DNA of 64,000 nucleotides from Psilocybe cubensis (lineage: Eukaryota). Positions 19,061 to 60,245 of this stretch are shown one piece after another (position 1 is the stretch's first letter; each line of letters opens with the position of its first letter). The stretch spans positions 2,914,001-2,978,000 of the forward strand of contig CM039006.1 of the NCBI GenBank assembly GCA_017499595.2. The letters run 5' to 3'. Below the pieces are notes generated by a model that was not told the DNA's origin, searched no databases, and saw only the letters and a list, made by a program, of their open reading frames with translations. Both the position numbers and the translations under genes were made by a program.

Positions 19061-20703
19061 ATGTCGCTCCCTACAGACGCTCCCCAGCTCTCTGTGGATC
19101 AAATTGCTCACGTTCTGCGTCTTGTGCAGATAACCAAATATGCCAGAGGTATAAGATTACAGAAGATTTACCAAGCACATCGAGCACTGATGGTCTCAAT
19201 ACATTTAGTGGCAACCAGCTCTATTGTCATATACGAGTGGGGTAAGTAAAATCTGTCATATATTCAAAGAAAATACCCATAATTCCTTGTCTAGCAATAA
19301 ATCTGGATCAAGAGGCAAGGCGTAAGGTCACTTGAATTATTTGGAAAGTAAGACTGATCTTCCGAGACTGTAACAGGTGGCGTATTTCTGGGTGATTATT
19401 TTACCTCTATGTTGAATGTCGAACGGACTCACTCATCTTGCTTTTAAAATCTAGAACAAACGACGTAGCTTTGTGAAGACCTTGTTTTTGCTTGTAGGTT
19501 GCTACACGATACTCGATAGGTCGCGTTTTATTCACTTCAGTCCAAGATCCGCTATTATGCTATTGCAGCGGTAATGTATGATTTGATCCTCAAATTTTAG
19601 AATAAACCAAGCTGAACGTCTGTCCAGATTCAACATATTTGGTAAAACTTGTACCTATCGATGCGGCGTTATTTCTCACTTGACATACCAGGTTTCTTCT
19701 ATCCGAAAGTAGACGAAAAAGTATGTCAGAACACATATATCTGGGTACCGCTAAAACTACTTTGCAGTTGTCGGTAATCATGCTACTGATGATACCAAAC
19801 ATTCTAACCTCTTTTTGATAGCTGTACGTATGCTTTCCTGTGCCCTGTTTCAACATGACCATTAAATCTCTGACTAATTAGAATATTATAAAGGTATTGG
19901 ACTTATGTACTGGCAAGGAGTAACCGGAATCTTCGAGTTTGTTCTCACAGAAGGTGGGTCAAATTGGTCATCCTCATTCATAACTAACGCAATGTCTATC
20001 GCCTCAGCCATTTTGCAAGTTCGAGTCTATGCTTTATTTGCAAAGAGTCGTAGACTCTTGCGATATATGGTTCCTTTGTCAGTATTGTGTGCCGCGGCAT
20101 CTGCTGTCATAATATTCAAAGATGTGATCCAGGAAATAAGAGGTAACATTCCTTTGATCCATTGTTTGCTAATGATGGCTCATCATCATTACATTAGACA
20201 AAGCAGTTAAAGCGATATCCATTCCAGGAGGGACATTTTGCTCTGTATTAAAGGTTCCTACCTTCCTATATAGTATATGGATACCTCCGTTGGTATTTGA
20301 ATGCTTCCTGTGCGTCCTGGCAACCAGGAGAGCATATCAAAACTTTGAGCCCCAAGCGTCATTTCATAAAACCGGTGTTCGCATTGTTCATGTCTTATTG
20401 AGAGACTCGTTGTTCTATTTCTTTGCGTAAGTTTCTCTGACATACGGAAAGATAATTACCTGTATTAATCAACTGTAGAATTGGGATCACCTATCTAGCA
20501 TGTATAGGAATGATTTCAATGGATCCCGTGAGTTTATCATAATTTTGCCCTAGCCGCGGTGGTTTACTCTTCCGTAGGAACTATTTGACGTCCCACTGGG
20601 GCTGTTGTTCGCAATATCCACCACACTGTGCAGTCGTATAGTCCTCAACGTTTACAGCGCCCTTCCGGATCAGCAGCTTGATAGGAGTCTGCAGTACCAA
20701 TAA
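19061..20703 (+). CDS. 7TM GPCR-like membrane protein, DUF6533 family, copy 3
   Basis: MSLPTDAPQL...LVQITKYAR / VATSSIVIYEW / INLDQE (GC donor) / VAYFW / NKRRSFVKTLFLL / IRYYAIAAV / FCIGLMYWQ / ILQVRVYALF / GTFC..WIPPLVFECFLC..LLRDSLFYF / FDVPLGLLFAISTTLCSRIVLNV, TAA at 20701-20703. Confidence 0.88.
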
Positions 20704-21602: not shown

Positions 21603-23309
21603 ATGCCGACCATTATGACCATCATGGATACCTCCAGTGTTCTCGAGCAAACCAAAGTTCACGCCATATACATTGCACAGGTCACTAGATACGCTAGGCG
21701 TATGCGGATCCAGTTTCCGTTCTTACTCTCCATTTCGCTCATATACTTGTTTGGTCGCAGTGTCATCTACCTGTATCATTATTTATGATTACTGTGAGTT
21801 AGCCAACGTTTACGAGTAACCATTACTGCAATGGTCTTACCCTTTTATAGTGTTAACCATTGATATAGAGGTACATATCAGTAGTTTCTATGTTTGCGTG
21901 CATTTCAGCTGAGTGTCTGTTGTGCTGACAATGTCAATCTAGCTATCCTTTTTACGGGTAAGCAACATTTCAGTTCGGATCGGGGATGTTGATATTTTCT
22001 AATACTGTAGCGTATCAAAGAAAAATCGATGGAGCTTTGCAAAGGCCCTTTTTCTCTTTGTAAGCACCTCTTTGTTATCCTAGATGCGATGCTTATAGTT
22101 GGACTAGAATCGTTACTACTTCATTGCAGCATGCATGTGTGTCGGAATATCGGCGTACAAGTGACACATTTATAATTAGGTTTCTCTAGATTCACCGTTT
22201 TTGGTAACGCCCTCAAACGTAGCTGGTTATGCTGGCTTTCATTGACCTACCACTCGGTTAGCTTTTTTTTATCCCCATGTAAACGATCAGGTTTGTCCCC
22301 GCACGCTTCAATTCTTTGCAGAGCATTACTCGACCTTCCATGCAGTTGTATGTTATTGTGTCATTATTCTGCGTCCGCAAAACTTCCTGACAATGTACTA
22401 TTATCATACGTAGCTGTGAGTAGTACTCACCTACCTACTTGCCATACACTTGATCTGAGACTTGGTGTTTCCTTATCACAGGCACAGTCTTAATGGAATG
22501 GCAAAGTTGGACAGGAATAATTGGCATTGTTACTACACAAGGTTTGCTAGGCAACTTCTATCATTCATTTAGAGCTGAATAGTTGTCATCACTCCAGCAA
22601 TTCTCCAGCTTCGACTGTATGCGCTGTTTTCACAAAGTCGCAAGCTGTTGATATACATGGTGCCGATATGGATACTGCCCTTGGTGGCGTCTACGGCTGT
22701 GATTTCCAAAGCTCTGGATCAGGTACAAACACGTAAGTTTATACAAATATTTCGAATTTACCCTTGATATCAATTTGGATGTACAGAGGGGAAGATCCAG
22801 GCAGTTGCAATTCCCTACGATTTTTTTTGTTCTATTCTTGACATCCCAACATACCTATACGGGTTCTGGGTCCCCGCCTTTGCTTTTGAATGCGTCCTAT
22901 GTGTTCTGTCAATTATTCAAGGAATTAAAAATTGTCGCTCAACTCAGGCAAGCTTTTTCTCAACCGAAGTGAGGCTAGCCAATGTACTGGTTCACGACTC
23001 CATTGTTTATTTTCTAGCGTATGTTTCCATATATATGCCAATTTTTATGAAGCTCACACCTGTCTACAAAAGGATCGGACTCACATATCTAGCGTGCATG
23101 GTTGTGTTACTACTCAATATTGTGAGTCGCATTGCAAAACATTTCATGCCTAAAAACTGAGGACATTCAAGGAAGTGTTTGATGTACCCCTGGGGTTTTC
23201 GGTTGCCTTTTCCTCTACCTTGTGCAATCGAATGGTATTGAATGTACATCGACTTGCCTCCGATAATCTCAGCTGGAGAAGTTCTAGAGTTTGCCCCTTG
23301 TCGATGTAA
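21603..23309 (+). CDS. 7TM GPCR-like membrane protein, DUF6533 family, copy 4 (15 exons)
   Basis: MPTIMTIMDT...AQVTRYAR / SSTCIIIYDY / LTIDIE / LSFLR / KNRWSFAKALFLF / NRYYFIAAC / FCTVLMEWQ / ILQLRLYALF / DFFC..FWVPAFAFECVLC..LVHDSIVYF / FDVPLGFSVAFSSTLCNRMVLNV; which of the nearby Met codons is the true start is uncertain. Confidence 0.88.
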
Positions 23310-23947: not shown

Positions 23948-25641
23948 ATGACTACTGAGCCGCTTGTACTTCCTCCAGAGTTAATGGATAAGCTAGTCCT
24001 TGGCTTAACCATTGTAGATTTGGTGAGATATACAAGACGTTAGCTGCATAACTCACCTGGAATTGTCTGTTTTGTTAACATTTCAACTAGTTCCATCTAT
24101 CTGCATTCTTATATACGACTACCGTACGCTATGTTTCCTCGTTTATGTATAGATCTATAACGACGACTCAATAGTTATCACTTTTGACGAGGAGGTAAGG
24201 AAATCTCCTTCATATTCAGAGATATCTGACCAAATGGGTAATCAGCTATCATTTCTATGGGTAAATAATGGTTTATCCGACTAGCTCAGTTCATGTTTAC
24301 TCTATCCCCCATGGCTTAGAATAGACGCATCACTCTCGTCAAGGTTTTGTTCTTTTTTGCAAGTTTAATTACCAATCAAGTCAACAACAGTAAATATTGA
24401 GCAGCTAACCAAATGCCACCAGAATCGGTACTACTTTCTTGGCGCTGCCTTGTAAGTCACTGTTTGTATTTTATCTGCAACTATGTATACTCAGTGTGGG
24501 CCTGAATTAGCTTTCAGATTTACGGTAAATTGTCTTGGGATACTGCGATACAAATCCAGTTGTATATTCACCAAATTTTCAGTCTTCTTCTCTCCGAATG
24601 TTGATACCAATGTGAGTCAAGCCATTGATACTCAGAAGGATTCAAAAGTTCTCACAAATCTCTCAGTTGTGAGGCTACCCGTTAGATCCTTTTAGTTGCA
24701 TTGTATGCTAATATCAGGAATACCCCACTGACATTCAGCTGTAAGTACCTACACGGGCATGATGACTTGGGAATATCCCACCAAAGGTTCCATAGGTATA
24801 AAAGCTTCTGACTGGCAAAATTGGTCGGGTGTATTGGGAACATTTCTTGCACAAGGTATGTTCCATTTTCTTGTAAATTAAATAGATTTCTTAGAAGTTT
24901 TATACCAATTTATTAGCCATCTTACTTGTTCGACTCTACGCGCTCTATTCAATGAGCCGAAAGCTCATTCTATATATGCTACCTGTGGGCATAATATCAA
25001 TCCTTGCCTCTATATACGTGATGCAGAGTTCATTTGAACTTCTAGACTCCAGTGAGTTTCCATTTCTTTTGGAAGAATTGATTTATAATTTTAGCTTTTT
25101 TGCATTAAAGGAAATGATATTTTTGCCATTGCTCTACCAGGAGGAAACACTTGCTTTGGACGGAATGTACCCTCATACGTATATGTATTTTGGATACCTT
25201 TGCTTGGGTATGACTGTCTCCTATGTGGATTGGCCATTTGGAGGGGCGTTGTGCATTATAAAATTCGTTTGATGGGAGGTACTCAAACGAAGCGATTGAT
25301 TGATATTCTTGTTCAAGACTCTGTCCTATATTTTGCCATGTGAGTTACAAATTGCGCCTAAGGTTTAAAACCAGCTCAAATAATCTCTGACGCAACCGAA
25401 ACATAGAATCGGACTCACATACCTAGTTTGCATGATTGTTTGGATTATAAACCTGGTAAGGCTTTGATGATGATTAGTTAGTGTATAAGTTGATGGGACA
25501 GATGTACAGAATTACTTCAACGTTCCGTTGGGGTTTTCGGCTGCACTTTCGTCTACTCTATGCAACCGTATGATCCTGAAGGTTTATGGCATGTGCGCGA
25601 GTCAGGTCAAGGAAAATAAAGTGAAAAAAGGACAGGCATAG
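23948..25641 (+). CDS. 7TM GPCR-like membrane protein, DUF6533 family, copy 5
   Basis: MTTEPLVLPPELMDKLVLGLTIVDLVRYTR / PSICILIYDY / ITFDEE / LSFLW / NRYYFLGAA / FCIKASDWQ / ILLVRLYALY / GNTC..FWIPLLGYDCLLC..LVQDSVLYF / FNVPLGFSAALSSTLCNRMILKV, TAG ending at 25641. Confidence 0.87.
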
Positions 25642-32454: not shown

Positions 32455-34159
32455 ATGAGCTATACTTCAGCATCCGTGATTTCACCGCTCTTACAGGAAC
32501 TCTTTCACGGCCTCTTCATCATCGATTTTGCAAAATGCACCCAGCGTACGTGCATCACCCACATCCTCATTAAGCCTATACAGGGTGATCTCTAACGGAG
32601 AATTTTTCAATCTAGTTTCTGCTCTTATGATCGTCCTTTATGACTACGGTAGGCAGCAGCTGAGCCACCCTTTCTATGCTTCCAGTTTGTTGATATGACA
32701 ATTGAAAGCGATTACGTTCGAGCAAGAGGTGAGCACCTTACAGCGCATGACCTTCTTGTAGACCGTTTTATTTACCTGTAACAATATGACAGATGTCGTA
32801 TCTCTGGGTGAGTTTTATGTATACCCCTGAAGCAACCCAACACTCATTACTTGATCATATTCTTCTACATAAGAAAACTCGATTCAATTTCGTGAAGGTT
32901 TTATTCCTCCTGGTATGTCACACCACCCACTGGAGTTCGTCCGACCAGGACTTATCAAGCAAATAGAACCGGTACTACATCCTCATATCAGCAATGTCAG
33001 TCGCATTCTATTCCTATCCTTTGCAAGGGTACTGAATTTGACATAGCTACGCCATTCATAGTAATTTTATATTGCAACATGTTCTCTAGCATACTCTGAT
33101 TACTCGGTTGCAGTACTGTTCTTTTCTGATGTGGACAACAAGGTGCGGAAAATCTTGCAAGACTATCAATATATTGTAGCTCAACTTTTCATTAGTTGTA
33201 CGTCAATTAAAATTTAATTATCACAGAGTTATAATATGTCTACTGAACGCTGCCCAACTCTCCACACTCAGCTGTAAGTGTCGAATCATGCGTAGATCAC
33301 TTTGACGTGACTAATAATTTGAAGGCGTTCACTACATGCTGTGGCAAATCTGGTCAATTATTGTAACATCGACCCTAACACAAGGTGCGTTGCACACTTT
33401 TACCACCTGCCCATGGTGCCTTATTTTCGCGTTTCAGCCATCTTGCAGGCTCGACTATACGGACTGTATTCGAAGAATAAAAAGATACTCGCCATCATGA
33501 TACCTCTTTATGTGTTGTCAATCATCGCAGCAGTAGTGCTTGTGGTTAAATCAACTGGAGAAGTAACTGCTGGTAGGCAACAATTTGATCCAGACATTAT
33601 ATCTCCACCTCTAAATCAACCTCCCTTGCCTTACAGCTCACGAGATCATTGCTTTCCCAATAAACAGGGGGCATTACTGCATTGTAACCAGCATCCCTCG
33701 CTTTTCGCTTGCATATTGGATACCTGGATTTGCCTTCGAATTGCTACTGTGTGCGTTGGCTATCAAGAAAGCATTTGGCCATTTCAAACTCTACGGGTCG
33801 TATTACACCACAGGGGTCAGGATTGTCGATGTTCTTGTTGGAGATTCAATTGTATATTTCCTGGTGTGAGCATTTGAATCTATAAAATAACTGTGATGTG
33901 AACTAACCACCTTCTGATCAAGTATTGCAATGGTTTATGTATCCTGCATTGCAATTTGGATTGCGGACTTGGTGAGCTCTGTTTTCGGATGGGAAATTTG
34001 ATGATGTACTCATATCCCACGCAGGAACGAATTGATACTCCACTAGGCTTTGAGCTAACCATCTCATCTACGCTGTGCAGCCGGATGGTATTCAACATGC
34101 ACGGCGCGCTTGACAAGCGAGATATTAACCAAACAATTGATTCGGATGAGACCGATTAG
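32455..34159 (+). CDS. 7TM GPCR-like membrane protein, DUF6533 family, copy 6
   Basis: MSYTSASVISPLLQELFHGLFIIDFAKCTQ / SALMIVLYDY / ITFEQE / MSYLW / KTRFNFVKVLFLL / NRYYILISA / FCVHYMLWQ / ILQARLYGLY / GHYC..YWIPGFAFELLLC..LVGDSIVYF / ERIDTPLGFELTISSTLCSRMVFNM. Confidence 0.88.
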
Positions 34160-34340: not shown

Positions 34341-36042
34341 TTACGTCTGACTCGTCTTTAACTCACTCAGCACCTCTGTCTCGTCGAGTGCTCCGTAAAG
34401 CTTGAAGATAATGCGACTACATAGTGTGGTTGATATGCTTAGCTCGAACGCAAGTGGAGCGTTGATTCGTTGCTGATATTTGTGTTGTTATTGCGGACTA
34501 AAGAGAGTTTTGACACGGACATACCACTTCAGCCACCCATACGGCTACGCAGGCCACATACACTAAGGTGATCCTGTGTCACATGAGTTGGTCTTTAGTA
34601 CTACATGAAATATTTAGAGAACACTTACACAAGGAAGTATAGAAGCGAGTCCCCGACAAGAATATCAACAAGTCTCATTCCTGTGGAGAAGTACGAGCCG
34701 TCATATCCCTTGAAGTGGGAAAAACCCTTTGCTATTGCCAGAGCGCACAGGCAAAACTCAAATGCCAAGCTGGGTATCCAATATACGTAGGTAACTCGTG
34801 TTGCATTTAAAATTCCGCAGAAGCGATTTCCAGGAATTGCAATTGCCCCAATTCCGTGATCTTTTTGCGCAATATAAATGCCATCAGATTGTTTAGACAT
34901 GAGGATGCAATGCTTACCGGCCAGCTCTTTAGAAGTTGCTACTGCAATGATTGCACTAGAGGCAGCGAGAGATAAGAAATGGAAGGTCAGGGTAAATGCC
35001 AGGAGTTTCTTGCTGTTTCCGTAGAGGGCATATAATCGGACCTGAAGAATCCCTATATGTATAATGTAGTACACACATCGAAGGCCGGATGTCAGAAAGC
35101 AAGGTTTGGTAAGGTTTATACATGTACATACCTTGAGTAATGATAGCCAAGACTATCCAGGAGACTATCTGCCAAATTATATACCTTTGGCCTGTATAAA
35201 TGTCAGAAAATGTATTCAATGATCAAGAGGAAGTCCTACTAACAGCTATTTACGAATGGTAGGCCAGGATTGTCTAGTGAGATCGTTTTTGTGAATGGAC
35301 ATAATTGAAATATGTACAACTGTAAGAAAAAATGAGTTTAATACGATTCGCCGTCACCTACAATGATTATTTGATACTCACAGTGTCATCAGGATTTTGA
35401 ACAAATAACCCTGTATTTGTAACATATGTTAGAGTGCCATTTAAATGAACACAATCATACCAGTTTACCGTATACAGCAATGCTGGGGGTAGTGCTTTAA
35501 TTATCGGGGTATTCACCAACCGAATGGATTGCATACCTTGATGCAGCAACAAAATAATAACGATTCTAAAAGTTAACGAGTCAACGTGGCATTATTACTA
35601 TAGATATAATTATAACATACCACAAAAAATAGTAGCTTGGTAAAACTAAAACGTTTTGTCTAGGATCAGGGATGAGCAAAATATGCCCGTGCCTATAATC
35701 ACAGACCTACCCACAAAAAGGTAATCTGGTGCATTCAGAAAGGATAAGTGTGAAAAATGAAGCGAAGAAAAATTCTGAGTCTAACCTCTTGGTCAAGAGT
35801 AAGCACTACATTGAAGGGTTAATCAAAATGCTTAACTTCTGTGGAATTGAGAGCTTACGGTAATCATACAAGATAACTGAAGTGGCAGATACTAGTAATA
35901 TAACAAACATGTTGGTGAGGCAAACATTTTAAAGCAATATAGCAATACCTTCAGCGTATTTAAAAAATTGGATGAGCTGAAGTCCATTAATCAGCTCATT
36001 AATAAGACCTGATAGGGGAGAAGTTGTAGTAGGGGTAATCAT
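34341..36042 (-). CDS. 7TM GPCR-like membrane protein, DUF6533 family, copy 7
   Basis: MITPTTTSPLSGLINELINGLQLIQFFKYAE / SATSVILYDY / LTLDQE / ITFLW / NRYYFVAAS / FCQRYIIWQ / ILQVRLYALY / NRFC..YWIPSLAFEFCLC..LVGDSLLYF / RINAPLAFELSISTTLCSRIIFKL, TAA at 34341. Confidence 0.88.
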
Positions 36043-37438: not shown

Positions 37439-39146
37439 TCATTTGCCCAGATCACTGTGCGTTTCTGTCTTATTGAGAGCGCCATATAGCTTGAATATCA
37501 TTCGACTACACAGAGTGGAGGATATGCAGAGTTCAAATGCCAGTGGGGCATTGATTCTCTCCTGCGAACTCGGATATCAGAACTGGTCAGAATATTTGTT
37601 GAACAGGGGCCTCACCACGTCCAGTATCCACACCGCAACACAGGCGACATAAACCATGGCAATTCTAATCGAACAGTCTGTGAGCGTAGCCAACTTTGAC
37701 AATAAAAATTGTGAACGTAGCTTACACCACAAAATACAGGATCGAGTCTCCAACGAGAACATCTACAAGCCGCACGCCTGTAGAGAAGTGGGCCCCGTAA
37801 GCCTTGAAGTGCACGTATCCCTTTGCAATTGCAAGCGTGCACAAGAAGAACTCGAAGGCAAAGCTGGGTATCCAGAAAGCGAATGCTATGCGGGGCGGGG
37901 CAAGAATCCCGCAGAATTCTCCTCTTCCTGGGATGGCAATGGCCTCAATAGAATTAGCTTCAGAGATAGTGTCAGCCTTGTGGCAAATCATATTGCATAC
38001 AAAACGTGGTATGCTCACTCTTTCTCTCTTCTGCCGTAGCCTTCAACACTGTGACGGCGGATACGATTAAGGAAAGTACGTGGAATGTCACCGTACAGAC
38101 TAGCAGTCGTTTGCTTTTCCCATAGAGCGCGTACAATCTAATTTGAAGAATAGCTGTTGTTTTTGACTGTGAAAAAGCGTTGAAGGAATTTAAACAAAAA
38201 ATGATTGGTTACCTTGAGTCACAATAGCAAGGACTACCCCCGTCCAGATTTGCCAGACCACAAATTGTGAGCCTGTCAGAGATTCATGTAAGCCAGATTG
38301 CAGCAGAATCGAAATATACTCACAGCTACATATATGCGAAAGACGCAGCGTAAATCACTCCTTGAACGATGCATTAGTGTAAAAATCACGCACAACTATC
38401 AGTAGTAAATATATATCAATCATCCGATTATACACTACAATTTTGTGCTTACCTTCTGACTGGGGTCAGCCAAGTATAGGCCTGAAAAATCGACATTAGA
38501 CATATAACTTCGCTGAGAGTTAATATTTCACCATATAGAGACACCCTAAATGGCCATCATTAGAGTTTTAAACAAAGTGTATGTGCATTGTCTAGCACAC
38601 ACCCAGCGGCTGTAACAAAATAATAGCGATTCTACTCCTGTAGAGTCAGCATGGACGTACCACGGCTGGATTCAGTTATGCGTACCAAAAAAAATAACAC
38701 CTTTACAAAACTGAAACGTTTGTTCTTTACAATGTTTAGTTTTGAGCCGTCTAGGATACATTTATTGGGAAAGATGTACCCAGAAATAGGCTTTCTGTTT
38801 TGTCAATGTTTAGAACAAGCATTACAGAAGAGGAGAATGAGTTATGTGCCTCTTCATCAAGGGTTATCACTAAAGTAATGGTTGATTGACGTAGAAACCT
38901 GGAATCAACGGCTGCTTACAATAATCATACAGAATGATTGTGAATGCCGATACTAAATAAATTGTGATACTGAGACTTGCAATTTGTATAAAATGAGGAC
39001 AATGAAGACGCACACTCTGCAAATTTGAAGAACTGTATGAGCTCAAGTCCCTGAGTCAATTCATTGATGATTTGAGGAAACGACGGGGTATTCATTTCAG
39101 TGTCAAGGGACAGCATGGAGGGAATATCCTCATATATTTCAGCCAT
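37439..39146 (-). CDS. 7TM GPCR-like membrane protein, DUF6533 family, copy 8
   Basis: MAEIYEDIPS...GLELIQFFKFAE / SAFTIILYDY / ITLDEE (GC donor) / KAYFW / NKRFSFVKVLFFL / NRYYFVTAA / FCSQFVVWQ / ILQIRLYALY / GEFC..FWIPSFAFEFFLC..LVGDSILYF / ERINAPLAFELCISSTLCSRMIFKL. Confidence 0.88.
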
Positions 39147-44904: not shown

Positions 44905-46612
44905 CTACTCTTTCAATGTCCACATTGAACCTGAATAACCCTGGTAAAGGCGGATCTCGGCTTTCGTTTCTTGATGGCGCCCCATGGACATTCAATAGGA
45001 GTCTGTTGCAAAGTGTCGACGAGAGAGCCACCGAAAAGCCCATTGGTGCGTCGAACCGCTCCTGTAACTTGAATTAGGCGAATTTTGGTTGCAGTGTTAT
45101 GACTATGCGTACACTATCAACTTTCCACACCGCTATGCAGGCAATGTAAACTGCACCGATTCTGTACATCTTAATCAATATTCTGCGTTACGTGGTGGGA
45201 TGAAGGCCGAAAACGTACGCCACGAAATAAAGAACGGAGTCTCGGACCAGGACATCTACGAGTCGGGTCCCCGGTGACCGGCGGTGGTGAATTTCAAAGT
45301 TTCTATAGCCCCTGAAGACGGCCAATGTGCATAGCAGCCACTCAAAGCACAGGGTTGGGATCCAAAATGTGTATAGGTAGCCCGGTATCTTCTCAATGAC
45401 GCAAAACATCCCACCAGGTATGACCGTGGCTCTAATTGTGCCCCCTGTGACGGTGTATGTGAACGAGGCTCCTCGGTCAGCTTGATGAAAATTCCATACC
45501 TCTTCGTTCTTGTACAATGGCGTTTGTCATGATTGAAACACACCCCACGATAGTGAGGAGGTAGAGGGGTACAATACACGCCAGAAATCTTCTACTCTTT
45601 GAGAAAAGGACGTACAATCGGACCTGCAAGATGGCTAGTTTAACCCAGCCGGGTGGAGTCAGAGAGTCGTACATTTTTGTATCAGTGCTGCATGTCGGCT
45701 TGAGATACCTTGTGAAATAATGATTCCAATAACTCCAGACCAGGCTTGCCATTCCATTAGTCGAATACCTTGTCTTCTGTTAGCCGAACTCATCAAGGAA
45801 GCGATTCCAAGTCACTGCTTACAGCTTTGAAAACAGTGCAAATCATCGCTTAAACTGAGCGTTCTTTACGTGAAATCTTGGAGAACGTACAACTGTATTA
45901 TCGTTGGGCATCAGAAAATCCTTCGCATGCAGGAACAGGAAATAAAATGTTTACCTGATCGTTTATGTTGGAAGTGAAGTATGCTAGATAGATGATTCGA
46001 AAGGTTGGCATAGCATGGAAATGACGTTTGATTGTACTCGCCGTATGCTGAGAATCTACGCCCGTCATATTTAATCCAGCTGATAAAACAGGATAAACGA
46101 AACGACATACACGGACGCTACCAGAAAATAGTATCGACTCTGATACACTGGAGTTAGTTTGCGTCGCAACCCGACGTTGAATACGCACGAGGAAGAACAA
46201 CCCTTTCACGGGTGTAAAATGCATGCGCTAAATTATCACGAGGTTCAAATACAATATTCATGTGCAAGACGGTGAAGATATACCCAAAGAAATGATATCT
46301 GATATTCGAGTCAAGATATTCAGTATGGTTATGTGTTGTCCGCTCAGCCATGTTTACCTCCTGATCAAAAGTCAAAACTAAGAAGAGATGAGCGTACAAT
46401 CCATGAATTCTACTTCAGAGGGTCTCATACTATAATCATACAGAATAATGCAAACAGCCGATACTGTAAAGTACAAACATAAGCAGTGTGTTGTGAGGGA
46501 GCCCATGTCACATACGCCTGGCATAACGGGTTATCTGTATGATTCCAATCTCGTGTATTGTCTTCGTCATGATATCATTGGGGAACGATGAAGGGATCAA
46601 TGTCGTGTTCAT
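44905..46612 (-). CDS. 7TM GPCR-like membrane protein, DUF6533 family, copy 9
   Basis: MNTTLIPSSFPNDIMTKTIHEIGIIQITRYAR / SAVCIILYDY / LTFDQE / ISFLW / SRYYFLVASV / FCIRLMEWQ / ILQVRLYVLF / GMFC..FWIPTLCFEWLLC..LVRDSVLYF / RFDAPMGFSVALSSTLCNRLLLNV, TAG at 44905. Confidence 0.88.
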
Positions 46613-48294: not shown

Positions 48295-48352
48295 GGGTCC
48301 AGGGATATGAACCATCCCATTGCAGTGGATTGGAAAGTTTGTCTCCTATACG

Positions 48353-50092
48353 ATGGATGTAACATTCCCCATACCTCCATCTCTTCAGCAGGGCTTTGAA
48401 GAATTAATTAGTGCATGGAAGATAGTTCAGCTGACAAAGTACACCAGATGTAGGTCAGACCTTCCAAAATCAATATTAATCAAGTTCTCACTAGTTTATT
48501 TGTGATCCCAATAGTATCTGCGGTATGCATTCTTTTCTACGACTATGGTAGGGCTTACACATTTTAGTCCCTTAACACACCTGACCGAGTGCCATACATA
48601 ATAAGCCATCACATTTGACCAGGAGGTAAGTTCTCCTGAAAAAATAATCTGCAATACATTGATTGAGACCTCAGATATCCTTTCTGTGGGTAAGCAAAAG
48701 TTGCGAATCATGAATCACCGTCTGCGAGTTCTGATAATGACAATTTTTTCCATAGAGCAGAAATTTTAAGTTTGTCAAGCTTCTCTTTCTCCTGGTAAGG
48801 TCATAAGGAGGCCAACAGGATTGAACCAGATGACTGACCTCAAACAGAACCGATACTATTTCACTGGAGTGGCTCCGTATGTGTCAATGTATTATAATCT
48901 ATCCTATTATGTCAGGCTTACTCTCTGGAAGGTTTACAATTTATGGTATAGGCTATTATTATGCTGATAACTCTCGCTAACACTTTTTTCCTCCTCGAAG
49001 CATATTTTTCTGGAAATATAAATTACAATGTACGTTTGACCCACACGTCAATTGGCTGATATAATAATTTTTCTTAGTTGTAGGCCTTTACTTTGCCCTC
49101 TAAATTATTCATGCGTGTGAATGATAGGCCATGACGTTCGTTAATCTCCAGCTGTAAGCAAAGTTGTTCTTCTTTGTGTAGCTGTGTTTTCTGATAGTCA
49201 TACCTGCGCAGGTGTGCATTTTATTAGCTGGGAATTGTGGACTGGTATTATTGGGATTGTAGTTCCTCAAGGTCAGTCCTTGGACATGCCTTGACGTACT
49301 ATTAGAATCCATGGAAGTGTGGAAAATAGTACTGATCTATGTTTCAGCCATTCTGCAGGTACGGATATATGCACTATATTCACAACGGAAGCAACTATTG
49401 GCATACTTGGTTCCCCTCTGCATGATAACCGGTACTGCTTCGGCCACAATCATAAACATAGCCTTCAACCAGGCAAAGACAGGTGAGTTTTATGTCTAAC
49501 GTTACTGTCATTGAAGTGACACATCTAAATTGAAGATGGCGCTATCAATGCACTTCCGACTCCTGGAGGAATGTTTTGTGTCATTGAGCACGTCCCATCC
49601 TATCTATACACCTTTTGGATCCCGATTCTGTCATTTGAGTGCCTGTTGTGCATTTTGGCGCTGATTCAGGGCGTGGAAAACTATAAAGCATATGGAGATC
49701 AATATAACTTGTGCATGCGATTTCATGGAATACTGGTCCGTGACTCTGTGGCATACTTTCTTGCGTGAGCTACCTTTTCACCTGCCTCCCGAAATCCTAA
49801 CCGTTACGTTTACGCTATAAATTATAGGATTGGTGGAACATACTTAGCATGCATGCTAGTTTGGAAACTTTCCCCAGTAAGATTTCTTTTCTTTGGGCAG
49901 GACATTACGGGCCAATGCTGATGTATGCTTCAGAATCGCTTTGACGCTCCTATGGGATTTACTGTGTCTGTGTCTACCACATTATGCAATCGCTTATTGC
50001 TCAGATTGAATGATATGGCATCAACCTCTGTGGATGGCACAGACATAACCACTATGTATACCAGCACCACAGCTAACTCCGACCTTGAATAA
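48353..50092 (+). CDS. 7TM GPCR-like membrane protein, DUF6533 family, copy 10
   Basis: MDVTFPIPPSLQQGFEELISAWKIVQLTKYTR / SAVCILFYDY / ITFDQE / ISFLW / SRNFKFVKLLFLL / NRYYFTGVA / FCVHFISWE / ILQVRIYALY / GMFC..FWIPILSFECLLC..LVRDSVAYF / RFDAPMGFTVSVSTTLCNRLLLRL, TAA ending at 50092. Confidence 0.88.
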
Positions 50093-51250
50093 TGATAGAA
50101 TCCCTCACTGTATCTCAAAAATAATAGTTTTACAAATTTTAGAGTTGCGCCCTCTGGCAGGGTGTTGATCCTGCTTCCATTTTAACTCATTTTTCAGTAA
50201 CAAGTAAACAAAACCAGGCTTATAGTTTTAATTGTTAAATCGACAACCCTTGGTCGGATTCTGATCAGAATTTTGATGCTGGCAAACATCACCATTAGAG
50301 AATAGTTAATTTTTTTGTCCTTTTTTATCTAATATAAGTCGCGAACTTTGTACCTACAGAAGCGGGTATAAAGGAGGACGTGGAACGCAAGTTTCAAACA
50401 CAAGTCAATTGCGCCCGGTTGGGCGTGGGAAAGGTTTGCGTGCGTGGGAGAAAGACAGTTGCTTCTCAAGGGCAAGAGGGGAGAAGTAGCGGGCACTGAG
50501 AGAGTGGTTTAGGGCTTAACATAGCGCAGGCTGAGCTGAGAGTGAAATAGTCGAGTGTAAGGGGTATTAATTGGTGGATAAAGGTGATGTCCGGTCAATG
50601 CCGCTTGCGGCAAGTCGTGGGAATTGGACTTGGGCACACACGCACACAGCGCGACACCGCTTATTACTGGCATTCATTTCACCATCGCTAGCAGCAAAAC
50701 AGCCCCGCCAGCTTTATACATGCATGGTTGTTAGATATTTTGTACGTGACCCTTTTTACTTCTCTAACCTATAAGCATTGAAAGAGTCTTTGATCAATAC
50801 CTCCATTGCAATTGCAAGGATGTGATCTGCCTTCTGTTACTTGTGCGATAGGCCAAGGAGATACGGAGAGAAAAGGGTAGAGATATTGTTATTAAATCTG
50901 CGGTCCCTAGTGGTTTCTGATGGTTTCTGCTCTCAGTATCATCCAATATTTTCTAGAGGGAGCTAATTAACTAGGATGATGCTTGGGCCATGACATGATT
51001 TCCAATGGTCAATGCTAGGCAACACTTATCACATTAATTGTGGGCCATGGTAAGCTGTATGTAAAAGGTATACTAAGATACTTATCATTCAAAGCGGTCC
51101 ATCCTAGATCCATGCGTCGAAAGCACCTTCCCCTTTTACCAGTGGGACTCCAAATGCCACTGACTCTGACTACATATAAAACCCCAGCTTTGTAGATTAT
51201 AGGTCATTATCATCACTTCTTTCATCCTTCTCTCAGATTTACCTTGTACA

Positions 51251-51606
51251 ATGAGCTCCCTAGGTTCAGATTACGAGCAGTTTTGCCACGTATTGGACTT
51301 GAGTGACCGTTTGTAAGTTTTCGATGTTTGAACTCATTTTTGTACGATCGCAGTTGCTAACAGATTCTTTGTAGCATCTTCAATCCTATTGGGGAATGGA
51401 TGATTAAAGATGGAGTAAACGTCAAAATTGAAGACCCTGAGGAGATTCAGAAGCTCTCGGAAACCCGTGGCTTCCTTTTTCACTTGTTCAACGGGAATAC
51501 AGATCGGGAGCACTATATGAGTGTTCACCGTCGTCGTCTGTGCTTGGTGATGAATCAAACAGCCAGTAGACTCCACGGAGCCCATTTGGAACCTTCACAA
51601 ACATAG
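51251..51606 (+). CDS. Small hypothetical spliced gene (about 98 aa) or gene fragment
   Basis: TATAAA about 75 nt upstream, ATG at 51251 and a canonical gtaagt...gctaac...tag intron give MSSLGSDYEQFCHVLDLSDRFIFNPIGEWMIKDGVNVKIEDPEEIQKLSETRGFLFHLF...; no family recognised. Confidence 0.35.
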
Positions 51607-52634
51607 AATTAGATTTCAGAAAGGAAATTTGTCCTCTTCACTTGCCACCCTGCAGCGGCCGTGTTACATTTTGTGCTTCTTGCATTGCTTCTAGCGCTTC
51701 GGTGTTTCTTTTTAAAATATCATTAATCCTTTGTCTTCCAGATACCCTGAAAACCAGTAACAAGCCCAGGTTGCGCATTTACTTGTTTTCTATAGTGAAT
51801 CTGGTGTTATTCTTTCATGTTTTGCAAATGCGATACCTTTTTATACTGAAAAAGTGATATTAAAACTCCTGGTTCCCCTAAGTTACCATTAATGCATGGC
51901 TGGGAAACCACCCAGGCTGGCAGGTATATATGTACTACTTCAAGGTCTGAAGAAGAGCATAGATCTCTGGCTACAAGCATTATCAGGAAGGTTTCTGAGA
52001 AAAGTCACGATGGAAATAAATGTCACTTGTAGTGCGTCGCCTATCAGGTTAGTAGTGAGTATATTAGAAGCTGTCAAGAGAATGAATCGGTTTAAGACTG
52101 CGCGGCCGCTTCGTATCCAGGTACAGGGAACCGATGGAGGTGTGCAGGATGCGCTAAGTTGGATGTTTAGTGTCAGTTTGGTGGCATCTGAGTGTGATTT
52201 ACAACCGCAAATGAGCAAAGATTAGAGATATAGGCTCCTAATATTCAGAGAGCTACTCCGCAAACATTACTGGATTCATAGCAGATGCTGCTATGAAATA
52301 CCACTTCCACCTCATGGCCTATCTTGTCATCCAGTGGGAAGTTCTGGTTACTTCTTCGCATTTTGGATACCCATACTTAGTTTCGAGGCATTACTTTGTT
52401 CCATGGCAATTATTCGAGGGGTTCGAATTGCCACATCCCGAATTTCTGTCAATAGAAAGGTGGACTCAACATTTTTTGGTGACGGCCAACGAATACTTGG
52501 CAGTCTTGTTCAAGATTCAGTCTTGTATTTTTAGCGTACGTTTGATCCTATTACCTCACTACATGCTAACCAGGCACCTTTAAACTTGGACTATGACTAG
52601 TATTGGGGCCACATACGCGACTACGGTTTTTTTC

Positions 52635-54800
52635 GGGCACCAGGAAATCAGCGTGGTTAGCCCGCGTGCGACCTATTTTTGCGTGCCACGCATAAATGTG
52701 AATCAGCAAATTTGCGTGTCTTTCACAAAACGTTGCGTGCGAAATACTACATGTCGCGTGTACATGATATGTAAATGCGTGCAGCATTGTTGAAGTACCG
52801 TGCTATTTGCGTGCATAATTTCGTATAAGATTCACATGAAGATCCGTGAATATTACGCTATTTCCTGCAAGGAATGTAGTATGCTACGCATCCAGTTGTA
52901 ATAAATAATCAATTGTCCAGCGAATTGTACTCTTTCCACCTGAGCCGCATTGTTAACCATCCCATTGATAGGTCCTTCCAGAGGCTTGTCTTTGATTAAA
53001 TTAGAACGCATGAAGCTGGATTGAACAGATATAACAGTCACTACTCCAACTGTGGAATAAATAACAAAACCCGGGTGCCCCTCCATAAAGCATGTAAATT
53101 CTGAAATAAAAGAGTCTCCTCCAAGGTCTTCACCAAGAGATTTTTGCCATAGATTAAATCTTTCTTTTGCCACCCGATCTGGGTTCAGGTATACGTCGGA
53201 TATTTCTGCAACGAATTCACCAGGCTCAAACCGGGTACACCAACAATGAGTCCCAATGGTCAAGTATTCGGATGTGCTTTGACCAAAGCTTCAAATATGT
53301 CCTTTTGGTCTGAAAGAGCATGAAGAATGCGGCCAGGACGACGATGTTTGTGGACCCCTGTGTTGTAGAAATGGCCACCGCCAGACCGCCTCCAGGTATA
53401 TGACACAACGTTACAAGTTTGTCGTATCAAATAGGAACCACAGAGACAGAATTCCTTCATTTACATAATTATGGATTGTGGGCTGGTCTTTGGACGTATC
53501 AAAATCGTACAGTCCTGTTTATCGCATATGATTGCACCTAGACAGCGCCTTGAAGCGCATTTTCCCTTTCTCCATCTATTTGCATTATCATCCCCGTATC
53601 TGTCACCGCCATTGCTTTATGCGCCCAGTGAATGAGAAGCTTGCCGGTCTTTTCAAAGAAGAAGTCATAAATCAAAGATGAGAAAAGAAGTATGAGGAAA
53701 GAACTGGAGAGTAGAATGATTATTGACCTCGAAAATTGATACCCTTTATATAGGTTGTATGTATTTGTTACTAGATTATATTATGCCTGCTTGTGGAGCC
53801 TAGAGGTAGTGAAACCTGAGGAACAAGGCACATAGATACCAAACAGGAACACAACTACCTACTACAATATACTCATTTAATGAGTTCACTGCCATTGAGT
53901 TTCACTTTTAATTTATTTGAGATCTTTGAAACATTCAATATCAATGCCAAGGTCAAAATTCAATATATCTAATGGTACATTCAGACATGTTTTGCGGTAG
54001 AATAATCCAAAACGCATTATTTCCTACTAGCGTGCAAGCTTAAATTGCTTGCGGGGCCATTGCGTGCAGATCACAACTGTTTGCGTGTCAATTGCACGCA
54101 CTTAATTGGGTCGCGTGCCGTCGCGTGCCATCGCGTTAACGTGGGAAAGTGGGTCGCGTGCTACTTGCGTGGCAAATGCGTGCGATTGAGTGCACCTAGC
54201 GTGCTGTGGTGTCACGCTGGTGGTCGTTCAACAACATAAGTTGCATGTCAAAAAGACAAAATTGTCGTTTTTTCCAAGTTCACCATTTGAACGGATATTA
54301 CCGATCATAAACCTTTGCCGATTTTATTGCCGACTCTTGGTTGCGGAGTCGGAGATTGTTGCAAGGCATGCCGAGGGACACGGCATACCAGACCATCCCT
54401 TGAGTTCATTGTTTGTATGGCCCCTATAACAACAAATTGAAGTTCTACCGTTTCCGAGCCTCAATCACCCACACTGACCGTGTAGTATAGACTTTTAAAG
54501 GCATATATGTTAATTAATTCAAATACAGCATAAACCATGTAATAACCTACATTCTAACTGCTTGATACCCGTAGTGCTGGCCGACATAGTACAAGGGCAT
54601 ACTAACAATACATTAAATAATTATAAATGAACGCTAACGATCACTGTTACATTAAAATCCTATGTGTGACACGGTTGTGACAATGCGTGCAGCACACATC
54701 AATATGCGTGCAGAACATAGTTGTTGCGCAAAAATGCGTGTCACGCAAGCACACGCAAAAACGCACGCACGCGAACAGCCACGCTGATTTCTGTATGCCC
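52635..54800 (-). mobile_element. Defective Mutator-like (MULE) DNA transposon, 2166 bp, 9-bp TSD, carrying a GCM/WRKY-type Zn-finger transposase remnant
   Basis: TIRs gggcaccaggaaatcagcgtggttagcccgcgtgcg and cgcacgcgaacagccacgctgatttctgtatgccc; exact 9-bp direct repeat GTTTTTTTC at 52626-52634 and 54801-54809; GCGTG subterminal repeats; broken ORF at 52853-53460 (CLCG...TC...GVHKHRRP...HP..PLGLIVG.PG...GGDSFISEF...HPGFVI...VISVQSSFM...INGMVNNAA). Confidence 0.88.
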
Positions 54801-54844
54801 GTTTTTTTCTGGCTCGTTCTCCATGTTAGTAAACTGGTTTAGAT

Positions 54845-55609
54845 ATATGACACGATTTTCCGTTGAAAATGCGAAGTGGCTGTCATCTGGGTTTGGTCAG
54901 TACAAAAATAGCAAGTCCAGAACCTTAGTACGTACATTAGTGTTAGGTTTTGTAATGTGCTACTTAGTTCTTAGTGCATACACCCTGAGTCGAACAACAC
55001 ATTGTGGTGTGGTCGTACTGGGGCCTTGCTCTGTACTGACGTATGGAAAAGTTTTCTTAATAGCAATACAGTACTATAGGGCTAACATCAACATAAACCA
55101 AGGTCAATTATCTTTTATACAACCCTCATGATTATTTCCCAGATTCCCTGATATTTTCTCATTTCCAACCTGTCTCGTCTTCTTTGGCTTCATGATGGAA
55201 AATGTAATTGTACCGGAAGCATCCACGGCATGATGGATTTCCCAGCATTATGCTTCGCCGTGCATAGGCCGATAGAAAGTCAGAAGAATAACAGATTTTT
55301 TGGAATAAATAAAAGTTTAATTATCTACTGAAACGGCTGCCGTAGGTATGCACATACTCAGAGGGACCCTCCCTATATCATTATCTACCTGTAAGCCGTA
55401 GATTTTTATCAAAGCCACGACCTGACCACGACCTGACCACGACACAAGTTTAGATTTACCACGGTCTGTGCTAAATTTAACTAAATACCAGGTACCTGGA
55501 TGTTCACACATTCAAAAAGTAAGTACTACAGTATAAGGAAAGGCCGGAATCTAGCCAGTACAATGGTACTTCTAAACGTTCGCTTTTTCAACGGAAAATC
55601 GTGTCATAT
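54845..55609. mobile_element. Non-autonomous TIR element (MITE-like), 765 bp, 5-bp TSD, inside an intron of the pseudogene
   Basis: 31-bp TIRs atatgacacgattttccgttgaaaatgcgaa and ttcgctttttcaacggaaaatcgtgtcatat (1 mismatch), flanked by direct repeat TAGAT at 54840-54844 and 55610-55614; removing it restores a normal-length intron. Confidence 0.85.
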
Positions 55610-56665
55610 TAGATGCTACTGATTTTTCCGGACCTTGATGGCTAATGCTTTTAATCGTAGTCTATACTAGACGAAGTGCCTCCAGGATTTTGCATTGCAC
55701 TACCATGTGTGGTCTCAAATCGTCTAGTTCTAAACATGTGTAGAGTAGCATTTCATGAATCAGCAAAAGGGCCAGTAGGGGAAGAAGTGACGAGGAACCC
55801 CGTCAGTGTATACCTGTACAGTTTTTTATCTCTATCGGAGGGCCGGGTATCTCGCAGGGACATAATATCCCGTCGTTAGATACAACGATCGATGAAACAA
55901 GGTTCGTGACTCGGTACTTGTCCATTACATACCAGCTAACCCATTTTCTCTCATTGACAGCAAAAGTCAGAGCAGGAAATACGTGCCTCCGTTCATTCAT
56001 ACTATACTTTACTTTCTAAAAATGAAGCCTTGGGTTTGTTAAAATATATATCTGGCTCACCGTCTTCCAACGATTCTGTGATATATGACTACAAGAAATC
56101 AATGATATTGTTCTTTCAAGTGAATTGGTCACGCGAATCAGCCATGATCATTCGGAACTTGGAACTTAGTTACCTCTGGATGAGGGGCGCAGTTTGCAGG
56201 GTTATCGAGGCAGTTTTCCCAAAGTAAAGACATCTGCTGTTTCTGATATCTCTTTGTACACGAATCAGAAATCAGGATGCGTATATCAACCCAAGAATCA
56301 AGCGCAGTATAGAATGCATGGTGAAGTGAGGTGGTGTCTGCGAGACACGTGGACGTAGCTGCATGTTGCGACGGCTAAAATAAATACGCAGATTAGGATA
56401 TCTTGAACAACATACCTACGTTAAAATATACCGGATGTGGCGGTATTGTGTGAAGGACTTGATGAAAATTGCCTACATCAGATCTTAACCATGTACTGTG
56501 CTATCCGCAGTGGGAGTCAAGGTAATTAGTAGAGCAGTACGCCAACCTATTAATAATGAAGTGGTCTCCTGCCAATGGCCACCTGAAGATTGTGATTTCC
56601 CACCCGTTGACGTGTCGAGGTTTCAGTGTGTTTCAGATAGAAGTGTTAATTAAAGCCTCAACAAG

Positions 56666-56674
56666 TATATAAAA
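56666..56674 (+). promoter_or_regulatory. Putative TATA box of receptor copy 12
   Basis: TATATAAAA about 80 nt upstream of the ATG at 56754. Confidence 0.4.
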
Positions 56675-56753
56675 CTATTTGCCTAGTGCTAGTGCTTTTT
56701 TGGCAGGCGCATAACAGCGAATCCTTGTTCACACACCCAGTGACATCCTGCCA

Positions 56754-58429
56754 ATGTATTCATTGTGGAGCGTGTTCTGGGACATCAGAACCACTCGTTA
56801 CTGCTACTGTGGGTGATATTTCTGTTAATTTTTGACTGAAGAGCCCAGCTTCTCATGATTTTAAACCTTTCAGTGTCTGCGACGTGTATGATTCTCTTTG
56901 ATCATTGTCCGTTTTCTATTTGTTACAATTTTCACTGGAAGTCTCATGAGTATAACGATTACAGTAATTACACTGGATCAAGAGGTAAATTTCCCACCTT
57001 GAACTTTTAGCAAAGCTTATACTTTATACAGGTCGAACTAATATGGGTACGTTCATCACGACTTCACTTGCAGCGAAACTGAACGAATCTTTGACAGATG
57101 GGTGCTTGGTCAATGGGAAAGATATTATTTCTAGCTGTAGGTACAGACATGCCGCTAGTGAAATAGCTGATCGAGTTATTTTTTTTGGTAGAATCGATAC
57201 TATGTGCTCGCCTCTGTTATGTGTGTATAATCGATATACGGTACCATTTTTTCGTATGATGCTCACCGATATGCTGTAACCAGATTCAATGCCTACGGTA
57301 ATAACATTTGCGACTACTATGAGTATAAATCTCACGCCGTAATTCCGAAGTGATGTACTTTTCGATGTTCAATGACATAGTAAGTTGGTCTTCGGATTCA
57401 TTAGTCAATCTCTTGCTGAATATTTGAAAAGAGCTGTGAGTTTGTAGCTACATGTCCTCAGATTCTGGCATGGAGCGCACCTAATGTCAATACAGGCTTG
57501 AGTTTTATTCGTTGGCAGGGGTGGACATGCTTAGCGGTTAGTATGATGGCTGAAGGTACCAGTTATGCGACGCATATTCCATTTCTGCCTTGCTTATCCT
57601 GTTGTAGGAATACTCCAGATCAGGATTTTCGCGCTTTATCTGTTGAACAAGCGTGTAATAATCACCGTACTGACATTGTTTGCGTTATCGTCCGCCCTTT
57701 CCGCTATAGTAATGGGATACGTACTGAGTATATTAGAAGGTCAGAATTCTTCATCCCCAATTGCTGGCGTTCAATCTCATGTTTTTGTCAACAGCAACCG
57801 AGTTTAATGACCCTGGAGGGGTTTTCTGCATAACGAAAAGGAGACAGAATCCTTTCTATGTCTTTTGGATACCAACTATCTGTTTTGAAGTTCTTCTTTT
57901 TACACTAGCATTGTTCCGGTCGATAACCTTATCGAAATCTATCGAACTCGGGGAAGGAGAAACGACGGTGTTTAGAAGTGGTCAACGCATGGTGATTATT
58001 CTTTTCCGTGACTCTCTCATATATTTCTTAGCGTGAGCATCTCAACCTACGTTGTTTTATCCACATAAACATACACTAATGATTTGCATCTCATTTTCAG
58101 AATTGGAGCGATTTATTTGACCGCAATGATCTTCTGGATGGTAGCTCGTGTCAGTGAGATGCCAGAGATTCCATCAGATCCTCGGTGAAGAATAAGTGTG
58201 CTAATACCTGATTTTATAGCCCGAGTTAGGTCAAGTTCCTTTGGGATTTTGCGCGGCCTTTCCAAGTGTATTAGCCAACCGCCTTGTTTTGAACATTCGC
58301 AGTATCCTTTCACACAGCGTTACACAGACGTCATCTCCACCAGAGCTCACAGAAAACCCTCTCAGCGGATCCGGGTACCACTTCCGCACGTATCACGAAG
58401 ACACCAGGAACTTTGAAAGCATGCTTTGA
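56754..58429 (+). CDS. 7TM GPCR-like membrane protein, DUF6533 family, copy 12 (about 14 exons)
   Basis: MYSLWSVFWDIRTTRYCY / SATCMILFDH / ITLDQE / VELIW / MGAWSMGKILFLA / NRYYVLASV / SCLSFIRWQGW / ILQIRIFALY / GVFC..FWIPTICFEVLLF..LFRDSLIYF / QVPLGFCAAFPSVLANRLVLNIR. Confidence 0.88.
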
Positions 58430-60245
58430 TATATCAACATCTGATTCCTGGTACAAAACTACCTTCCACAACACGAAGGAAGGCTTCTGGGGTTAACTAT
58501 CCGGTGATAGGATCCTACGTTGTCTATGGCTGAAGACTCCAACGCACCCGCGCTTCAAGTTTCGACTGACTGATGAATCTCGCATGGAACATTAAATTAC
58601 GTTAATAGTCAGTTAATTATTTCAAGACCCACCACCGTTGCATTTTGTATCAATTTTTCATTATACTATCCGTTAATTAATGATTTTCAATGTCGGACCA
58701 TCAAACACCGGACACGATGATGGTGATATTTAAGGACAGCGATGCCCACGCACCATGCGCCAATCCATTGATAGACCCAAGCTATACTTACACGTACGAG
58801 GCTGCGCATGTCATCAGGGTCAAGACACAGCGACCAACCACCACAAAACCATCATACTCACGGGATTGTGTCAAGCTGACGCTGATCGTACTCGCATCCC
58901 GATGTCAAGGTAGGTAGGAATTAAAACATCAGGTGGAATAGCCTCGGTATGATGCCTCCTAGGTAATACCGTTTTGCGCATGTCATATCACAGAAGCTGA
59001 GATGGTTGCGCAGAGAAAATTTACTGGGGCCACTGACCACAATGGGGGCTTGCCACTGATCGCAGTGCAGTGGCATACCGACAGTGATGGACAAGCGCTT
59101 ATACATACACCATGACGGGAACAAATTGCCAAGCGACAGTTTCCCGCAGGCGAGCACTCCAAAGCACTCACTATGAGAACCAGCAAACAAGACGAGTTCA
59201 CATGGTTAAACACACTGGTACTTGCTAAGCAGAGGGTGTAGTTCGAGACTTTTGTGGGGTTCACATATAACGCAGATACAACGTACGGCCAGAGCTTGTT
59301 TCCATCTCACTTCCGCGAACAGGAAGATTAGATTAAGGAATGGAAATCTTATCGCGGCTAGATAAGATCATCCCACCTTGATAACTTCGGAAAGCTGTAC
59401 AGTTCGCAATGACTCTCTTCACCCCCCCCTGTCAGAGTGAGTCACTGAGTTATCTAATAGAGATGATGTCAACCGCCGGAAAGCAAATACTCGGAAGCAG
59501 AAATCCATCCAGAATGTATGTGCAAAGGTCAGAGCCAGCAAAACCAAAGCAGGAGTCCAATCGTCCCTAGCAGAAAACATGTTGTTGCAGGCGAGGCGGT
59601 GGAGAAGTTTTAGACATCAAAATCACCACTTTGACTTCGTAAAGATAGTGCTGAAAGACTATGAGCAGCAAAATTGTGGTATAGCAGCTCCAACCTAAAG
59701 AGAAATAGAATTCAAAAGTATCAGTTCACAGCCCGAGGCCGATATGCCTCACCAAGTCAATTTGGCCTTTATCGTGCCGTCAAATGCTACTGTCAGGCAG
59801 TTAATCCACGCAAAGGACAGCTGTACTTGGATTTCCGGGTTCCCAAACTGGGCTCGAGGTGGCCAGCCTCGTGATGTGAAGATAAAAATGGCTGCCTGCA
59901 GGCAAACATGCTAGGGCAGGCGTGCTATGCCCCAGCGGTTCCGAGGGGTATGACACGCAGTCCAGCTTGGGCAGGTTTTGTGTGTGCATGTTATTGGCCA
60001 ATGCCTCTTTGCGCATATCATATCGGACGAGTACTTACGGGAACTCCAAATATACCCTCCTTTCCGCAGAGTCATATATTCCACTCGCCTCCGATTCTTT
60101 TCCCTCCTACCTTCTTCCCTTCCTTTCCTGAACCACGACGAAGATACAGCAGCTAACTGTATCTCAGCAACATAAAACATTGTGAGTCGATCACGATCCT
60201 CAACTGCTCGGGCTGATCAGAAGTGGAGGAATTGAATACGACACG

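Follow-up and report, generated by a model that had tools for sequence, protein, structure and literature searches.

The locus raises a simple question: why does one gene of a tandem family carry on a single 4-nt exon what its relatives carry on two consecutive exons of 2 nt each? The gene, copy 12, lies near one end of the window (the whole 64,000-nt stretch of DNA analysed here), in a tandem cluster at 4900-58500 that mixes distant subfamilies with 28-63% protein identity and in which 14 intron positions are conserved in nearly every copy. We refer to the introns at this place as A (upstream of the micro-exons), B (between them) and C (downstream).

Copy 12 is modelled as an intact gene (Table 1), with the first ATG assumed to be the start codon and with 13 introns of 47-70 nt, all canonical GT-AG. 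The letters read GACATA followed by gtaagt (from 57380), then gaaaag (to 57431), AGCT, gtgagt, tacag (to 57495) and GC TTG; they stand as originally described for 57380-57500, AGCT keeps Ser-Cys in frame, and the 309-codon frame encodes Ile-Ser-Cys across it. AGCT supplies the whole Ser codon and contributes one base, the first, to a conserved Cys codon, and the former site of intron B falls between 57433 and 57434. Against an HMM built from 120 homologues, copy 12 reaches E 2e-103 and aligns gap-free over the micro-exon, and translation of the frame shows that a CT-only exon, or skipping of the exon, leads to a stop within ~15 codons. Branch-like motifs are present in intron A at 57416-57420 and 57424-57428. 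Alternative donors for intron A, or an exon concealed within it, were considered and are ruled out by frame and length.

Table 1. Coordinates of copy 12 and of the paired micro-exons of the other complete copies in the window.
Feature	Coordinates	Strand	Description	Basis
Copy 12, DUF6533-family gene	56754-58429	+	intact; 14 exons, 309-codon frame, 13 GT-AG introns	
Copy 12 exons 1-7	56754-56808, 56874-56906, 56965-56984, 57032-57046, 57098-57136, 57192-57220, 57284-57297	+		
Copy 12 exons 8-14	57351-57379, 57432-57435, 57496-57555, 57608-57739, 57795-58032, 58101-58149, 58220-58429	+		
Copy 12 exon 8	57351-57379	+	29 nt, phase-0 end	length equal to paralogues'
Copy 12 intron A	57380-57431	+	upstream, retained; 52 nt, GTAAGT donor, AAG acceptor	gene model
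Copy 12 4-nt exon	57432-57435	+	AGCT, micro-exons AG and CT fused	frame and sister-gene comparison
Copy 12 intron C	57436-57495	+	downstream, retained; 60 nt	gene model
Copy 12 exon 10	57496-57555	+	60 nt; finishes Cys codon, opens predicted third helix	gene model, paralogue comparison
Copy 10 micro-exons	49078-49153	+	TT (49078-49079) and CT (49152-49153); intron B 72 nt	
Copy 9 micro-exons	45823-45892	-	TT and CT; intron B 66 nt	
Copy 8 micro-exons	38324-38395	-	TT and CT	
Copy 7 micro-exons	35244-35319	-	TT and CT	
Copy 6 micro-exons	33196-33273	+	TT and CT	
Copy 5 micro-exons	24667-24740	+	TT and CT	
Copy 4 micro-exons	22346-22415	+	TT and CT	
Copy 3 micro-exons	19768-19823	+	TT and CT	
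Copy 2 micro-exons	9401-9464	-	TT and TT	
Copy 1 micro-exons	6046-6102	-	TT and TT	

The upstream intron was said to be too short to conceal another, and the family bears this out: intron A has 52 nt and the shortest of 310 modelled family introns (46-84 nt) has 46 nt, with the aligner's floor on intron length set at 38 nt. The whole stretch from exon 8 to exon 10 spans 116 nt in copy 12 versus 153-203 nt in 38 genes with two 2-nt exons (2+2 genes) that the aligner parsed cleanly; therefore no extra intron is hidden there, and one is truly missing. A strong motif of acceptor, 4 nt and donor is expected ~0.012 times per 116 nt (13 occur in the window, both strands). One contig of sample X3, which belongs to the study that also produced the likely source run, runs unbroken over 55580-58500, differing at 61 letters with 7 more gapped (~2% divergent) and no insertion at the site, so the state of copy 12 is not an assembly slip. 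A contig of sample X2, from that same study, stops at 57443, 8 bases beyond the 4-nt exon, and is excluded from the bridging count. We confirm the observation: in its predicted splicing, copy 12 has a single 4-nt exon where its relatives have 2+2 nt.

Exon layouts of the window copies were obtained with a purpose-written spliced aligner. The same four coding nucleotides are on one exon in copy 12 and on two in all ten other complete copies, just as the original prediction had it (exons of 29, 4 and 60 nt as against 29, 2, 2 and 60 nt); copy 11, a degenerate 3′ fragment, is unscoreable. The paired micro-exons in the window are TT/CT (n=8) or TT/TT (n=2). It had also been argued that the 4-nt exon independently supports the reality of the 2-nt exons, and this holds, with intron-free homologues of other fungi showing equal residue spacing; the Cys spacing of 22/5 in copy 12 is that of 68 of the 74 pattern-matching homologues. 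The fused exon also backs the reality of tandem 2-nt exons, which gene finders will tend to miss, in a large receptor-like family.

Two repeat elements lie in the window upstream of copy 12. One (52635-54800) has terminal inverted repeats, is flanked by a 9-bp target-site duplication and is inserted in the degenerate copy 11; it is absent from the contigs of both X2 and X3 (joint 52625-54801), and is therefore polymorphic. The second (54845-55609) has 31-nt inverted ends (97% complementary) and a high contig depth. Two runs presumed to be RNA (X4 and X5) match 48300-58500 in its transposon part only, which speaks neither for nor against the splicing of copy 12.

By its sequence, the family is DUF6533 (PF20151), GPCR-like membrane proteins of a mushroom-forming fungus. 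Two intron-free, mRNA-like metagenome homologues (L052 and L053) score 63.1 and 57.3 bits for DUF6533 against a curated cut-off of 24.1, genomic DNA of the family member L020 gives 24.9 bits, and copy 12 scores 80 bits on a proxy HMM spanning the same 46 columns. The three large 3′ exons of copy 12, submitted singly to Pfam, gave no match, and exon 12 searched against longer proteins gave 34 candidates, none of them homologous. In all, 253 homologues were found, and the species-named ones among the 120 listed are Agaricomycetes; a metagenome scan yielded three loci and no orthologue of copy 12. In the same genome (G000), 96 DUF6533 matches at E<=0.1 are spread over many contigs, and the eight that were modelled have exon layouts unlike those of the copy 12 family.

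The structure model of P0001, the L053 protein (pLDDT 84), contains seven long helices, with residues 150-166 forming a hairpin in the second outer loop, and among the PDB matches listed all are GPCRs (best E 2e-4, TM 0.33-0.50). By the fold of this homologue, the copy 12 family would consist of GPCR-like seven-helix receptors, with ligand binding and G-protein signalling putative. The Cys encoded across the micro-exons is present in 55 of 57 family rows and a second Cys, in the second outer loop, in all 57, and a disulphide probably joins the helix 3 Cys to that of the loop. This could account for the maintenance of the frame, since the micro-exons give part of the codon for a Cys at the top of helix 3, whose likely partner would be the invariant Cys of the second outer loop. 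The protein is unaltered by the fusion of the exons, and therefore no functional effect is expected.

How the single exon arose depends on the wider family. Single-exon genome searches found at least 56 genes in the same genome besides copy 11, of which 52 are 2+2, including the most divergent clade; the other four are copy 12, one gene with another change (L061) and two that are unscoreable (the truncated L007, and L057). L051, the genomic orthologue in another fungus of the paralogue L004, is also 2+2. The maximum-likelihood tree was built with the two trait columns omitted from the alignment and with the non-homologous 5′ parts of L007, L010 and L022 trimmed; it leaves out L005 and L017 (near-identical duplicates, counted as 2+2), copy 11, and three genes with other DUF6533 layouts (L067, L070 and L073). 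Copy 12 is sister to an eight-gene AG clade (support 100/99, and 100% of 200 bootstrap trees), and both are inside a 13-gene clade with L004 and L051 (100/98). When 26 proteins of named fungi are added, the copy 12 group falls within a conserved L004 orthogroup (SH-aLRT 98), and midpoint rooting places the root between two groups, both of them 2+2. The states of intron B on the tree need one change only.

The sister clade has micro-exons AG/CT in six of its seven scoreable genes (L002, L003, L006, L010, L011 and L021), the seventh, L013, having AC/TT; the closest outgroups of the AG clade, L004 and L051, have TT as the first micro-exon. AGCT is thus the sister clade's AG plus CT, the two ancestral exons fused without addition or removal of a base. 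Intron B is present in relatives at the same position and absent from copy 12, the coding bases are unchanged, and copy 12 is nested among 2+2 genes. Mapping the 4-nt and 2+2-nt states onto the family phylogeny, as had been proposed, polarises the single change as a loss. Copy 12 therefore very likely represents a precise loss of intron B between two 2-nt exons, neither a gain nor an acceptor shift. The original prediction had offered a precise gain or loss, or loss of the first micro-exon compensated by an acceptor shift; precise loss stands, gain is disfavoured by the nesting, and the shift is not needed given the AG/CT sister genes. The AG had resembled an old acceptor because only TT-type paralogues were visible in the window, the closest paralogues being outside it. 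A deletion slid by 2 nt that makes the acceptor AG of a TT-type gene exonic was considered too, and was dropped once the AG/CT sister genes appeared.

Other family members show changes of their own. In L016, L017 and L023 the 20-nt and 15-nt exons are fused to 35 nt, a precise loss of intron 3 in a common ancestor; the L016 junction reads AG/GT, and copy 2 of the window retains intron 3 with AG/GT-type ends. L059 (G000:C4:1721300-1723700) has precisely lost its last intron (14), so that the 49-nt exon continues into the last exon. L061 (G000:C2:962400-964800) is independently changed at exons 8-10, exon 8 having 28 nt and ending in TT, followed by one 2-nt exon only; this is probably a loss of intron A with one codon deleted. 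In L019 (G000:C10:194840-198049) intron 4 has apparently shrunk to a 27-nt in-frame remnant that would add nine residues. The 5′-truncated sister gene L007 (G000:C9 ~3038000-3038600, minus strand) has an acceptor and CT that nearly abut exon 10, with two extra bases, which may mark the end of a rearrangement or another intron loss. Three genes (L002, L003 and L010) have a GC donor after the AG micro-exon, that is, an acceptor-like 2-nt exon before a weak donor. Recent duplicates (L005/L006, L016/L017 and L002/L003) are found outside the window cluster.

Several readings have to be set against a precise loss. It is very improbable that copy 12 is spliced otherwise, being silent or decaying or using the second AG, with the 4-nt exon existing on paper only. 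The exon is indeed a prediction, and broken family members exist (copy 11, L007 and L010), but this gene has 13 canonical introns, a whole frame and a gap-free match to 120 homologues. Among the 310 family introns the acceptor trinucleotide is AAG in 48 and GAG in one, and in all 16 tandem AG-AG cases the first AG is the acceptor, in models that are homology-guided and with two parses possible in four of the 12 genes checked by hand. Present splicing should accordingly take the first AG past the branch site (AAG, 57430-57431), a choice that the AG-type paralogues already face. Still less credible is an ancestral 4-nt exon, with intron B gained before all the other copies diverged from one another. 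For the tree that this requires, the AU test gives p=0.062, with a log-likelihood 22.7 lower and five distant outgroups of a different exon layout, so that nesting, rooting and parsimony carry the polarity and the AU test does not. Under a gain the root would have to sit on copy 12's own terminal branch, where root-to-tip distances are 0.45-3.19 (SD 0.70) versus 0.93-2.09 (SD 0.29) at the midpoint; two starred branches of the tree nest copy 12 among 2+2 genes, and 2+2 is common to another species. A two-step history, in which the first micro-exon was deleted, merging introns A and B, and a new acceptor 2 nt upstream made the old acceptor AG exonic, is improbable as well. The AAG-AG-CT sequence is compatible with it, and AG could have arisen twice given the TT of L004 and L051. 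Intron similarity, used to tell A from B, gives z-scores of -3.4 to 2.7 that follow no pattern; because of saturation of the intron sequences, intron A of copy 12 is indistinguishable from an A/B chimera, as such a history would leave. Against this, two events and a frameshifted stage are required, the match to the AG of six of seven sister genes would be coincidence, and were the deletion a single step between the exon AG and the AG that ends intron B, its product would be identical to a precise loss.

With precise loss as the preferred reading, the route by which intron B disappeared is the harder question, and routes of precise intron loss are still debated among mature cDNA, splicing intermediates and DNA repair. 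The setting of copy 12 practically excludes a fully spliced cDNA as recombination partner: with introns A and C still in place, both crossovers would be confined to 2 nt beside the lost intron. Homologous recombination requires much longer arms than this. Neither the joint loss of adjacent introns nor exonic recombination arms are found in copy 12, although the mature-cDNA route is the standard model of precise loss in fungi (PMC3629103). We propose instead that the ancestor of copy 12 had exon 8, AG, CT and exon 10 like its sister genes, and that intron B was excised exactly, leaving one 4-nt exon, unaltered Ser-Cys coding, and introns A and C in place. The most likely route would be a single genomic deletion in the repair of a break, with a 2-base repeat, the exon AG and the final AG of intron B, as its guide; a cut anywhere inside the AG repeat would yield the identical product. 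We give this explanation as a whole, from the AG plus CT ancestor to the loss of intron B by AG-repeat deletion, a probability of about one half. The exon end and the end of intron B are the same (AG), and three of four positions match on the published scheme (AG plus the T of CT). Exon-end AG occurs at two of three precise losses versus 76 of 364 retained introns (P ~0.11, post hoc); 13 further AG-first genes retain intron B, and a 2-base repeat is a weak guide. Five intron-loss events are found in the family, all single (copy 12; intron 3 of L016/L017/L023; intron 14 of L059; intron A of L061; intron 4 of L019), and in none were neighbouring introns removed, though the exons are only 2-60 nt. 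Single losses, two of them imprecise (L061 and L019), argue that genomic deletion is active in the family. In worms and flies, loss rates are reported to be higher where an exon-end AG matches the intron end (PMC3698931).

The main competitor to genomic deletion is a loss templated by a reverse-transcribed splicing intermediate, with B gone and A and C present, followed by gene conversion through flanking intronic homology. We regard this as possible but doubtful. The loss is exact, and two consecutive 2-nt exons probably impose ordered splicing. In a fungal stwintron, the internal intron alone has been lost several times, which is ascribed to reverse transcription of the splicing intermediate (PMC5639578), and fungal intron loss is described as mostly RT-mediated (PMC3629103, PMC3514964); fission yeasts are reported to show no enrichment of microhomology at lost introns, with 656 of 660 losses precise and RT-like (PMC3629103). 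On the other side, none of the five family events takes adjacent introns despite exons of 2-60 nt, two are imprecise, and the route requires an intermediate that persists for long in the nucleus as well as a conversion tract that leaves the remaining introns untouched. Copy 12 might then, on the less favoured view, be a DNA record of a nuclear splicing intermediate in which the middle intron was spliced first and the RNA reverse-transcribed and written back. If so, the family (50+ paralogues per genome, orthologues throughout the Agaricomycetes, and AG and non-AG variants) would show in which order tandem 2-nt exons are spliced and would be a natural test separating RNA-templated from microhomology-guided intron loss. 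Paralogues differ in having AG or non-AG first micro-exons, and a mushroom-wide collection of losses could therefore test microhomology directly.

A search of the main texts of mostly open-access papers turned up neither a description of tandem 2-nt exons in this family nor a loss between two exons of that size; the Coprinopsis cinerea microexon tables might list the family. Single precise intron losses are widely documented in the sources seen (PMC3514964, PMC6616335). The closest parallel for the proposed route is microhomology-mediated loss (van Schendel and Tijsterman 2013; PMC3698931), likewise a precise loss of single short introns with the upstream exon AG equal to the intron end and with neighbours kept; the published case is statistical and concerns nematodes and flies, whereas copy 12 is one fungal event in which the 2-base repeat is the entire upstream exon. 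The bioDA stwintron (PMC5639578) has lost its internal intron, a loss similarly exact despite intronic sequence at or near both ends, which makes a mature cDNA impossible as template. There, however, the lost intron was inside another intron's donor, whereas that of copy 12 lay between two coding 2-nt exons with no splice signal split; introns A, B and C of the 2+2 genes each own a complete donor and acceptor, and the frame depends on the four bases. In plants, loss of microexon-flanking introns (PMC8831610) also makes microexons vanish as separate units, but there the microexon is reported to join a long exon, often with all introns lost in an RT-like manner, while in copy 12 two microexons merge and stay a microexon. 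Real 2-nt exons exist in mushrooms, long reads in a study of 1-3 nt exons of C. cinerea having revealed 57 of them in 50 genes (PMC12230235); the accessible text of that report names neither the DUF6533 family nor a gain or loss event. DUF6533 (PF20151) proteins are reported to be structurally related to Ustilago Gpe1 (PMC13652807), the same Pfam family as that of copy 12, with a seven-helix fold for the closest intron-free homologue; exon structure is undiscussed in the part of that work available, and the DUF6533 genes here are known from sequence and predicted fold. Precise loss of a single intron is thus a known kind of event, and copy 12 is a small instance of it in an unusual setting, between two 2-nt exons.
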